IMG/VR virus record: IMGVR_UViG_3300017991_000121
Span: 1 to 59,745 of that record
Source of the DNA: a virus
Taxonomy: Duplodnaviria; Caudoviricetes
Direction: 5' to 3' (one strand)
Length of the DNA: 59,745 nucleotides
The notes beneath the pieces were generated by a model. The model saw only the letters and a program-made list of their open reading frames with translations. It had not been told where the DNA came from and did not search any database. Shown here in pieces: positions 11,890-13,531 of this stretch. Positions within the stretch are counted from its first letter, which is position 1. Each line of letters starts with the position of its first letter. A program made the position numbers and the translations under genes.

Positions 11890-13229
11890 TGGCCATGGAA
11901 TGGAACCCCGAAGGCACCGTGCTCACGTTCTCGATTGCGGCGGACACCAAGTTCGCCCGACTGGACCCCGCCTCGTTGGACGACGCCCTGCGGGGGCTTG
12001 CGGTCACCAAGGCTCTGGACGGGGTGTCCGGTGGGAGCACCAACGACGTGGGGACGATCACCTACCGCGCCGAAGTGCCACCCGCTGAGCGGATCCTTGT
12101 CCAGCAGGTAGTCAACGACCACACTGGGATCCCGGCGGTGTCGGCCGAGCCGGACGTGGTCAACGGTAAGCTACGGGTGGAGGTCCGGCCGCGGGACGGG
12201 ACCAGTTACGAGGACTACTCCGTCAACTGGACGGACCCCACCACGTGGCACACGGACAGCGTGCGCCACACCGCACACGTGCCAGCCGACCAGGGTGGCG
12301 GGGTGTACCGGATCACCGGAGTCACCTACGGGGTGGTGGACGTAACCCATGGCAAGATCACGCAGGAGCGTCGCCTGGCGGACATGCGCCTGCGTGTGTA
12401 CGTGGACGGGGTGGAGGTGCCCGAGGAGGAGTTCGGGTGGGCGGACTACGAGGCCGACCCCCACGTGCTCCCGGACGGGTCCACTCGGCCCAACCCGTTC
12501 GCCGCGGGTGACTGGACTTGCGACTACGCCACCGGCACGATCACCTTCAAGTCCCCACCGGCAGGGGTGGTCACATGCGACTGGAGCGACGCGGTGTCCA
12601 GCGCCTGGTACATCACACCGGATGTCGGTCACCAGTTGCACCTGCTCGCGGTGGAGATCAACGCGTCGATGGACGTGGTGATGCGGGACTCGGTGTGTTT
12701 CGTGCCGCAGATCTTGGCGGCGGCCGCTGCTGCGATCGGGGAGTTGGACCAGGAGGCCGCGGCCATAGGGATCACACCGGCTGCCATGGCAGGGCTGGGA
12801 CTCACTGGTCTGCCCGGGACCATGATCTTGGCCAGCCGGGAGGCCGACGCCGCACCGTTCTACGCGGCCGCAGCCGCGTCCCAGGGGGTCACGGTGGAGC
12901 AGTTCAAGGCCGGGGTGGGCCTCCCCCTCCAGGACGACGCGTACTTGGACGTGAGCGCGGATATTCACGAGTACAAGGTGGTGCGGGACTTCATCGTGGA
13001 GAGCCAGCGCGCCTACCCGTTGATGGCCAAGGTGGGCGGCGCCAACAGCCGCGGCATGACCGTGGACTGGTTCACTTGGCGGTGGCCCTACGAGGAGGCC
13101 GCGGCGCGCCTGCTGGTGGGAGCCAACGGCACACGGGTCAAGATCCATTTGCGGCACGACATCCCCTACGGTGGGGAGTACGCCAACGCGTCGGTGTACG
13201 CGATCGATGAAAACGGGGCGGGCCAGTGA
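11889..13229 (+). CDS. putative virion structural protein
   Basis: 446 aa; DWTCDYATGTITFKSPP resembles virion beta domains. Confidence 0.6.
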   Translation: MAMEWNPEGTVLTFSIAADTKFARLDPASLDDALRGLAVTKALDGVSGGSTNDVGTITYRAEVPPAERILVQQVVNDHTGIPAVSAEPDVVNGKLRVEVRPRDGTSYEDYSVNWTDPTTWHTDSVRHTAHVPADQGGGVYRITGVTYGVVDVTHGKITQERRLADMRLRVYVDGVEVPEEEFGWADYEADPHVLPDGSTRPNPFAAGDWTCDYATGTITFKSPPAGVVTCDWSDAVSSAWYITPDVGHQLHLLAVEINASMDVVMRDSVCFVPQILAAAAAAIGELDQEAAAIGITPAAMAGLGLTGLPGTMILASREADAAPFYAAAAASQGVTVEQFKAGVGLPLQDDAYLDVSADIHEYKVVRDFIVESQRAYPLMAKVGGANSRGMTVDWFTWRWPYEEAAARLLVGANGTRVKIHLRHDIPYGGEYANASVYAIDENGAGQ

Positions 13230-13531
13230 GCACCTGGCGTGACCGCCGAGCCGCCGACCGCCGTCTGTGCAGGATCGCGTGGTCCATCGCGCGGGACCGG
13301 AAGCAGTCCCGGTCCACTCGTCGTGCAGCCCGGAAGGTATGGGCTGTGTTCGCCCTGCGGGTTGCGCTGGGGTGGCACGCCAAGCCCACCAAGGCACTGG
13401 AGGCGTTGGTGGGTTCTTTCCGGCACGGGGAATACTGCGGGGTGGGCCACGGCCTACCAGACGGGGAGTCCGCCGACCCGGTGGATGCCCTGGACGCCGC
13501 GTGCCAGGATCACGATCAGGCATACGGGTAG
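13226..13531 (+). CDS. phospholipase A2-like protein, apparently circularly permuted
   Basis: HGEYCGVG Ca-loop and PVDALDAACQDHDQAY catalytic helix at the C-terminus; RRAADRRL helix at the N-terminus; GTGA-coupled start. Confidence 0.7.
   Translation: MSTWRDRRAADRRLCRIAWSIARDRKQSRSTRRAARKVWAVFALRVALGWHAKPTKALEALVGSFRHGEYCGVGHGLPDGESADPVDALDAACQDHDQAYG

Follow-up and report, generated by a model that had tools for sequence, protein, structure and literature searches.

A phospholipase A2-like gene beside the head genes of a tailed phage, with its catalytic elements in a putatively permuted order

Can the catalytic elements of a secreted phospholipase A2 (sPLA2) be re-threaded in nature, so that the helix carrying the second aspartate comes before the helix carrying the His-Asp pair? 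Secreted PLA2 is a textbook fold, and its topology is treated as fixed. The question is raised by a gene at 13226..13531 (stop codon included; + strand, as are the features of this gene and its immediate neighbours below) of IMG/VR virus record IMGVR_UViG_3300017991_000121, a linear tailed-phage record of 59,745 bases, the whole of which is called the window here (G+C 69%, estimated completeness 68%). The open reading frame (ORF) encodes 101 amino acids (aa), with D11, Y70-C71-G72-V73-G74, C93, H96, D97 and Y100 as its key residues, and G101 is followed by a TAG stop. A previous reading of the letters alone (the sequence-only reading) had proposed that the two halves of a PLA2 domain are swapped in this protein; the residues and numbering that it quoted are identical to the translation of 13226..13531. 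Judging from the sequence comparisons below, the gene probably encodes a complete small secreted-type PLA2 domain with circularly permuted elements.

The PLA2-like protein and its family

Judged by its catalytic motifs and by homology, the protein belongs to the secreted-type PLA2 superfamily and fails the canonical order of elements. A Y-x-G-x-G Ca loop (Y70-C-G-V-G74; loop region residues 66-76, RHGEYCGVGHG, 13421..13453) stands before the catalytic helix, and the His-Asp pair lies in a C-x-x-H-D-x-x-Y helix (residues 85-100, PVDALDAACQDHDQAY, with C93, H96 and D97; 13478..13525). Both elements are conserved and align to sPLA2, the former to its Ca loop and the latter to residues 37-52. The canonical succession of Ca loop, His-Asp (HD) helix and second-Asp helix is violated, with the putative Asp helix at the N-terminus. 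When a profile of 28 family members was compared with PDB sequences, 161 distinct sequences matched at E <= 10 (best E 1.2e-7), and 60 of the 60 matches listed were PLA2s. Profile positions ~47-105 align to sPLA2 residues 8-57, that is, to the Ca loop and HD helix only; this segment presumably includes D39/D42, C45, H48, D49 and Y52 in addition to the Ca loop. By these comparisons the PLA2 likeness of the two elements exceeds chance, which bears out the earlier assignment of the C-terminal third to an sPLA2 Ca loop and catalytic helix. Pfam reached only residues 66-100 of the window protein and stayed below its cut-offs (PF08398, 19.5 bits against 23.9; PF00068, 17.4 against 32.1). The PF08398 cut-off is passed by relatives in loci L066 (24.8 bits) and L067 (26.5 bits), with matches confined to profile positions 9-38 and 9-41 of 80.

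The family was assembled from a phmmer search of 1.84 billion cluster representatives, which gave 31 proteins at E <= 1e-3. Twenty-six of these, the window protein and P0001 formed a first alignment of 28 rows; left out were P0002, P0003, P0027, P0029 and P0030, the last three being longer and of canonical order. P0003, a 7287-aa protein of ~50-aa tandem repeats, reached its E of 2e-41 by summed repeat matches, has no BLASTP match to any window protein and was rejected as spurious; a false positive of this type could mislead automated family building. Three members were added by profile search and three loci by contig scans (L002, L066 and L067). After removal of L066, a duplicate of P0015, and with L002 retained as a duplicate of P0004, the family comprises 33 rows and 32 distinct sequences, all sharing the same architecture; the sequence-only reading had been unable to search for such homologues. 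Members are 88-143 aa long except for one 72-aa fragment (P0026), and pairwise identities go down to ~31-40%. In all of them the chain ends soon after the HD helix, with a tail past Y100 of 0-41 residues (median ~6 over the 33 rows); in the window protein it ends one residue past Y100. P0011 carries 'ADLV' in its tail 8 residues past the His, too close for a retained second-Asp helix, and was rejected as a duplication intermediate.

G72, D90, H96 and D97 are invariant in 33/33 rows. In the Ca loop, G68 and G74 are conserved in at least 90% of rows (G74 in 30/33) and Y70 in 28/33, and C93 is found in 25/33. Position 11 holds D in 28 and N in one of the 29 rows that have an N-terminus, four of the 33 rows being without one. 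C71 and C93 co-vary perfectly (both in 25 rows, neither in 8, a single one in none). They would form a loop-to-helix disulfide, which we take to correspond to the classical C29-C45 bridge.

The 101-aa ORF is a real gene under constraint, and an end just past the HD helix characterises the whole family. Compared with the syntenic orthologue in L002 (57% identity), the ratio of nonsynonymous to synonymous substitution rates (dN/dS) is 0.34, with dS saturated at ~1.3; taken by part, codons 2-40 give 0.48 and codons 41-100 give 0.26. Read support, which the sequence-only reading had wanted checked across the gene, is given by contigs from runs of three other studies, which span it with 0 substitutions and 0 indels. 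A PLA2-like continuation downstream of the stop was not found in any frame. The protein collection holds a 61-aa version of the protein, P0002, that starts at an internal GTG (V41, 13346..13348) and is devoid of the first helix and D11. This start is probably a wrong call, since the N-terminal 40 residues are conserved in relatives and have a dN/dS of 0.48. The record is present in sediment and seawater metagenomes, and there are no RNA runs among the listed sequencing runs that carry it. Scans of viral contigs with the single protein and with two alignments gave no match. A profile scan of genome contigs gave 14 loci (12 Mesorhizobium and 2 Bacillaceae) that are of canonical order as judged by match ranges, and by the same measure no prophage copy of the permuted family was seen among them.

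Order of the catalytic elements

Canonical-order relatives are plentiful in the scans of metagenome and viral contigs. They include small proteins from bacteria ('HDRCY...RCDxNLIxxMP'), RHS toxins, N-termini of small-virus capsid proteins ('HDAAYA...ADLxF') and the streptococcal toxin Sla. A further group is lipoprotein-like, with a hydrophobic leader that ends in Cys ('HDACY...CDCDGALV'), and has close relatives from Mesorhizobium in the genome scan. In every one of these groups a [C/A]-D-x-x-[L/F] helix starts 8-14 residues past HDxxY, and its Asp is invariant in the 24-sequence canonical alignment A6. The N-terminal consensus of the permuted family, RRxADxxL, is the same motif as this post-HD helix, and D11 (codon 13256..13258) aligns to the second Asp of the canonical profile. 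D11 is accordingly noted as the candidate partner of the catalytic His, equivalent to D99 of sPLA2. The helix around it (helix A, residues 4-23, 13235..13294) is the proposed second-Asp helix (helix 3 of sPLA2), and helix B (residues 29-48, 13310..13369), which is amphipathic and contains Arg, is the proposed last helix of the canonical minimal PLA2s.

Profile comparisons are consistent with this assignment. In hhalign, family residues 1-28 matched the post-HD region of 43 non-redundant canonical sequences with a score of 15.97 (P 3.6e-4), in the register to be expected, with R~AD~~L of the family on ~CD~~L of the canonical relatives. A column-shuffle null had a mean of 5.15 (standard deviation 1.31, maximum 10.43), and 0 of 400 shuffles reached the observed score. 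With residues 1-62 the alignment was collinear over both helices (8-44 to 8-44, score 22.6). The R..AD..L pattern that had been pointed out at the N-terminus therefore holds, by its register match to the canonical second-Asp helix and by the D in 28/29 rows. The canonical post-HD hidden Markov model (HMM) was also run against the family and 622 six-frame pieces of the same high-GC window, one of these 'decoy' pieces being the PLA2-like gene's own frame. Seven family members (13.4 to 4.4 bits, residues ~4-35) outranked the 621 true decoys, the best of which scored 4.2 bits.

A 107-position HMM built from canonical-order sequences only matched the window protein in two pieces and in swapped order: residues 65-101 on model positions 2-37 with 50.0 bits, and residues 7-56 on positions 43-91 with 11.2 bits (independent E-value, i-E, 7e-4). 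Swapped domains under this model were found in 26/33 rows. When the N-terminus was shuffled in 100 rounds, the summed positive bits dropped from 87.4 to a mean of 0.2 (maximum 2.9) and the number of domains with at least 3 bits from 12 to 0. Covariation provides a further comparison. In 68 canonical relatives the residue before the Y of HDxxY co-varies with the residue before the second Asp (C-C 39, A-A 15), a pair that is presumably C51-C98 of sPLA2, and an unpaired Cys at the first position occurs only in two sequences without the second-Asp helix. The equivalent positions 99 and 10 of the permuted family are both occupied by residues other than Cys, mostly A/A or A/other, save in P0031, which has Cys at both.

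AlphaFold predicted the permuted protein (28-row alignment) as a single compact domain with helices at 4-23, 29-48 and 56-61, then a loop, then a helix at 88-100 (mean predicted local distance difference test, pLDDT, 87.1; predicted template modelling score, pTM, 0.77). The model of a canonical relative, L011 (24-row alignment; pLDDT 86.5, pTM 0.76), has the loop first, followed by helices at 26-41, 46-62 and 66-93. The two predicted models share the same secondary-structure elements in rotated order. The L011 model matches rice PLA2 (2WG7_A, Z 10.9, root-mean-square deviation 2.3 Å over 91 residues; 2WG8_A, template modelling score, TM, 0.70). In the ESM Atlas the nearest neighbours of the permuted protein by features are small viral 'PLA2 domain' clusters (0.83, under the bar of 0.9), and by structure residues 1-55 and 1-52 align to PF08398 regions (TM 0.49 and 0.47, likewise under the bar); we treat both as leads only.

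A number of results weigh against a permutation. Residues 1-56 and 1-29 alone matched no Pfam family, helix B alone was not significant in hhalign (6.4, P 0.49), and most of the swapped second domains are individually insignificant (i-E 0.001 to ~10) in family rows that are related and not independent. A less clean version of the shuffle test, in which gap-rich columns stayed in, had erratic outliers, and 7 of its 300 shuffles scored at least as high as the real alignment. Moreover, shuffling destroys helical periodicity, so that the control with real-sequence decoys is more telling than the shuffles. The Cys pair of P0031 is one sequence, spotted post hoc; position 11 is N in a single member, and Y100 varies, with Y in 22 of 33 rows. 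The family-profile search, which is weak evidence in this respect, found no longer or fused forms, whether tandem or intermediate. Finally, structure searches with the permuted model returned no PLA2: Foldseek gave 59 PDB matches at E <= 10 and 0 at E <= 0.001, with no PLA2 among the 50 listed; VIA-align wide gave only helical hairpins over residues 1-50 (best Z 7.5), again with no PLA2 among the 50 listed; and the best E in BFVD was 0.42, with no PLA2 listed. These blanks decide nothing, since the aligners are order-dependent: for a model of this kind, a missing PLA2 match is expected of a permutation and would also fit a different packing. The proposal that the halves are swapped, with the second Asp on the N-terminal helix, therefore draws support from the sequence-level tests and the rotated element order of the AlphaFold models, and none from the Pfam PLA2 profiles, which are blind to the N-terminal part.

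Other explanations and known phospholipases

There is some chance, though a modest one, that the PLA2 part is a truncated core, reduced to the Ca loop and HD helix, and that the basic helical hairpin joined to it is unrelated, with a separate task such as binding to membranes or nucleic acids or virion targeting. The conservation of D11 would then be due to a structural salt bridge (R45 being one possible partner), and convergence of amphipathic helices would explain why helix A resembles the second-Asp helix. Such a hairpin would suit the strongly basic N-terminal half (isoelectric point, pI, 12.0, with 16 K/R; the C-terminal half is acidic, pI 4.3), the conservation of R32 (26/33) and R45 (30/33), the Pfam blank over residues 1-56 and the generic helical hairpins that fold searches return for residues 1-50. 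It accounts poorly for a register-exact profile match that includes the Asp, for the lower scores of real-sequence decoys of the same composition and for the C/C pair of P0031 at C51/C98-equivalent positions. In addition, a PLA2 without a second Asp would be unusual, because this residue is invariant in the canonical relatives, yet H96 and D97 are invariant here.

The invariance of G72, H96 and D97 (33/33) at the family's low pairwise identities, together with the C-terminal dN/dS of 0.26, makes it unlikely that the protein is a non-enzymatic PLA2 derivative whose Ca- or lipid-binding surface was kept for a structural or membrane-binding accessory of the fibre/head module, although the variable Y100, the member with N11 and the embedding of the gene among structural genes would agree with this. 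It is more improbable still that the protein is a membrane-anchored half-PLA2, with the basic N-terminus inside, helix B spanning the membrane and the Ca loop and HD helix outside, which would place D11 and H96 on opposite sides. The Kyte-Doolittle mean of helix B over 19 residues is above 1.6 in P0021 and P0028 (2/33) and 2.27 in the L112 copy, the charge distribution is positive-inside-like, and small membrane-protein genes follow in L112; but 31/33 members lie under the threshold (window protein 0.82), the conserved R45 (30/33) sits mid-helix, and AlphaFold predicts a single compact domain (pTM 0.77). A canonical PLA2 gene damaged by frameshift, truncation or misassembly (the sequence-only reading had cautioned against the latter two) would fit the short length, and P0002 shows that annotation is unreliable here; for practical purposes such an artefact is refuted by the family architecture (~32 distinct sequences from many contigs), the syntenic orthologues, the dN/dS, the identical independent contigs and the absence of a PLA2-like continuation in any downstream frame.

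In a circular permutation, the reading that we prefer, the canonical minimal order of the plant-type fold (Ca loop, HD helix, second-Asp helix, last helix) would become helix A with D11, helix B, a linker, the Ca loop (Y70-G74) and the HD helix (H96, D97). Helix A would lie antiparallel against the HD helix and let D11 orient H96, while Ca2+ would be held by D97 and loop carbonyls and the C71-C93 disulfide, where present, would staple the loop to the HD helix. The basic N-terminal half could bind anionic bacterial membranes. The chemistry of sPLA2s involves a millimolar Ca2+ requirement and stabilisation by disulfides. Because Ca2+ and, in most members, the disulfide would be needed, the enzyme may be inert in the producing cytoplasm and active outside. 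The weakest step of this scheme is the last, in which phospholipids of the host membrane would be hydrolysed either at entry, by an enzyme associated with the virion or fibre module, or at exit.

In structure the protein comes closest to the minimal PLA2s of the plant type (group XI, for example rice PLA2, PDB 2WG7/2WG8) and to the uncharacterised minimal relatives of canonical order from bacteria and viruses (L003-L049, P0027, P0029 and P0030). Shared with these are a Ca loop (Y/F-G-x-Y-C-G-x-G), a C-x-x-H-D-x-x-Y helix, a putative second-Asp helix ([CA]-D-x-x-L) and a further helix, as well as a size of ~100 aa and the lack of a beta-wing, whereas in the permuted protein the proposed second-Asp and last helices stand at the start and nothing but a short tail follows the HD helix. 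The group I/II enzymes (pancreatic and snake-venom sPLA2, PF00068) are those to whose residues 8-57 the family profile aligned at E 1.2e-7; unlike them, the permuted protein has no beta-wing, none of the other disulfides and its putative D99-equivalent Asp at the N-terminus, and it is synthesised in the cytoplasm without a signal peptide. With the parvovirus VP1u PLA2 (PF08398, Phospholip_A2_4), the best Pfam family for the permuted proteins, it has in common that it is virus-encoded and carries YxGxG and HDxxY. VP1u is a canonical-order N-terminal extension of a capsid protein, whereas the permuted gene is free-standing in a tailed phage and its family matches only profile positions 9-41 of 80.

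A tblastn search of the phage collection had its best match in the streptococcal prophage PLA2 Sla (E 0.05, with 47% identity over residues 67-100). Sla is a ~190-aa secreted toxin of canonical order that is encoded at the prophage end, in contrast to the permuted gene in its structural module, and its hydrophobic N-terminal segment looks like an export signal. The Sla prophage loci (L071-L081 and L087) and L038 have Asn at the position of the second Asp ('CECNRQL', 'CTCNQAL') and keep the Cys pair. Among the RHS toxins, the ORF at L041:1668-3413 has a C-terminal PLA2 motif that ends right after HDACYGAAG while the contig continues for 1.4 kb; the gene may be split or frameshifted there, or may represent a second PLA2 architecture that is truncated.

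The sequence-only reading knew of no described permuted case, and we found no report of a permuted sPLA2 in the open full-text literature searched, subscription-only papers and supplements aside. The permutation described in the relevant part of the Lipocone preprint concerns another superfamily, and the corresponding part of a polymorphic-toxin survey lists Tox-PLA2 without permutation. The rotated arrangement has probably not been described before in sPLA2. If true, a natural permutation would mean that the His-Asp-Ca site tolerates re-threading, and it would offer a minimal scaffold of ~100 residues for studies of interfacial catalysis. Order-dependent tools under-call enzymes of this kind, as Pfam recognises only a third of the domain and neither Foldseek nor VIA-align recognises any of it, and the helix with the Asp is missing from the public gene call.

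Genomic setting and possible role

The PLA2-like gene is free-standing, with its own start and stop, and lies 75 nt from a head scaffolding gene (13607..14404; phrog_4866, 5.7e-8) and 935 nt from the major head protein gene (14467..15882; phrog_1357, 1.6e-19), so that the capsid genes it was said to adjoin do follow downstream. An SD-like (Shine-Dalgarno-like) GGGGCGGG is found just 5' of its GTG start, which falls within the TGA of the upstream 446-aa ORF (11889..13229) in a GTGA overlap (13226..13229) that points to translational coupling. The coupling to a structural gene proposed earlier is upheld as far as the overlap goes; the upstream ORF, read earlier as structural, is of no recognised family. 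Directly upstream of the PLA2-like gene, this 446-aa gene is a conserved partner also in L002 and L067. The start of the PLA2-like gene overlaps the preceding stop by 4 nt in the window, L002 and L067 and by 8 nt in L066. In L112 the listed PLA2-like starts overlap the preceding ORF and the true start is uncertain.

L002 shows synteny with the window over a block made up of two adjacent fibre-like genes (282 aa and 701 aa), one gene each for a 219-aa and the 446-aa protein, and the PLA2-like gene; there, too, the genes for the scaffold and the major head protein come next (the head protein is 83% identical). In L067 the block is followed instead by the portal and MuF genes, and because its placement differs in this way it behaves as a module. 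In L066 the PLA2-like gene comes after an unrelated 340-aa ORF and two genes past an Amidase_2-like ORF (22 bits, below cut-off). The endolysin of the window, with Amidase_2 and PG_binding_1 domains, is encoded at 41823..42797, 28 kb from the PLA2-like gene, which sets the latter apart from the lipases and esterases of phage lysis cassettes, with their endolysin and holin neighbours; the picture is mixed in L066 and L112. Directly after the PLA2-like gene of L112, a viral contig of 73 kb, there are two small genes (5621-5926, - strand, and 6379-6699, + strand) with one hydrophobic span each, which in one of them precedes a coiled-coil-like region. Both may be holin- or spanin-like.

It is the parvovirus VP1u-type PLA2 (PMC11311400) that suggests a virion-borne, Ca-gated membrane lipase. 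By analogy, we tentatively picture a permuted His-Asp/Ca enzyme of ~100 residues that travels in a mobile fibre-like module of tailed phages from sediment and seawater, is silent in the cytoplasm, where Ca is low and Cys reduced, and opens the host membrane at infection as a phage counterpart of the VP1u lipase; taken as a whole, this picture is rather doubtful. For phage biology, the gene is a candidate for a membrane lipase encoded within a structural module, and tailed phages have seldom been explored for this function.

The 446-aa protein had no match in Pfam, PHROG or PDB sequences, and in the ESM Atlas it gave a lead at 0.76 to a VP17 barrel cluster. Homologues were found in 20 further viral loci, with a PLA2-like gene within 3 kb in L112 and L114 only, where the two lie within ~1.2 kb of each other. 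Its first ~80 residues (11889..12140) look like a small domain with 'H(T/Q)G(I/V)P' at its end, which recurs at the N-termini of three adjacent L112 genes (1980-4733). This N-terminal domain matches a 72-aa viral cluster in the Atlas (TM 0.87), and fibre-like proteins may share it as an adaptor. The fibre-like 282-aa and 701-aa proteins of the window (8256..11220) share a C-terminal domain of ~120-170 aa, a pair also present in L002, and long internal repeats rich in Thr/Ala/Gly are found in the 701-aa protein. Other parts of the window have a portal gene, a MuF-like gene and a sheath-like match that is weak (phrog_23, E 5e-4, in which no stretch passes by itself). The product of the MuF-like gene (49633..53295) is 1220 aa long; within this MuF-like head-morphogenesis protein, residues 619-654 give a weak MerR-like match. 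Cargo domains are common in long MuF fusions.

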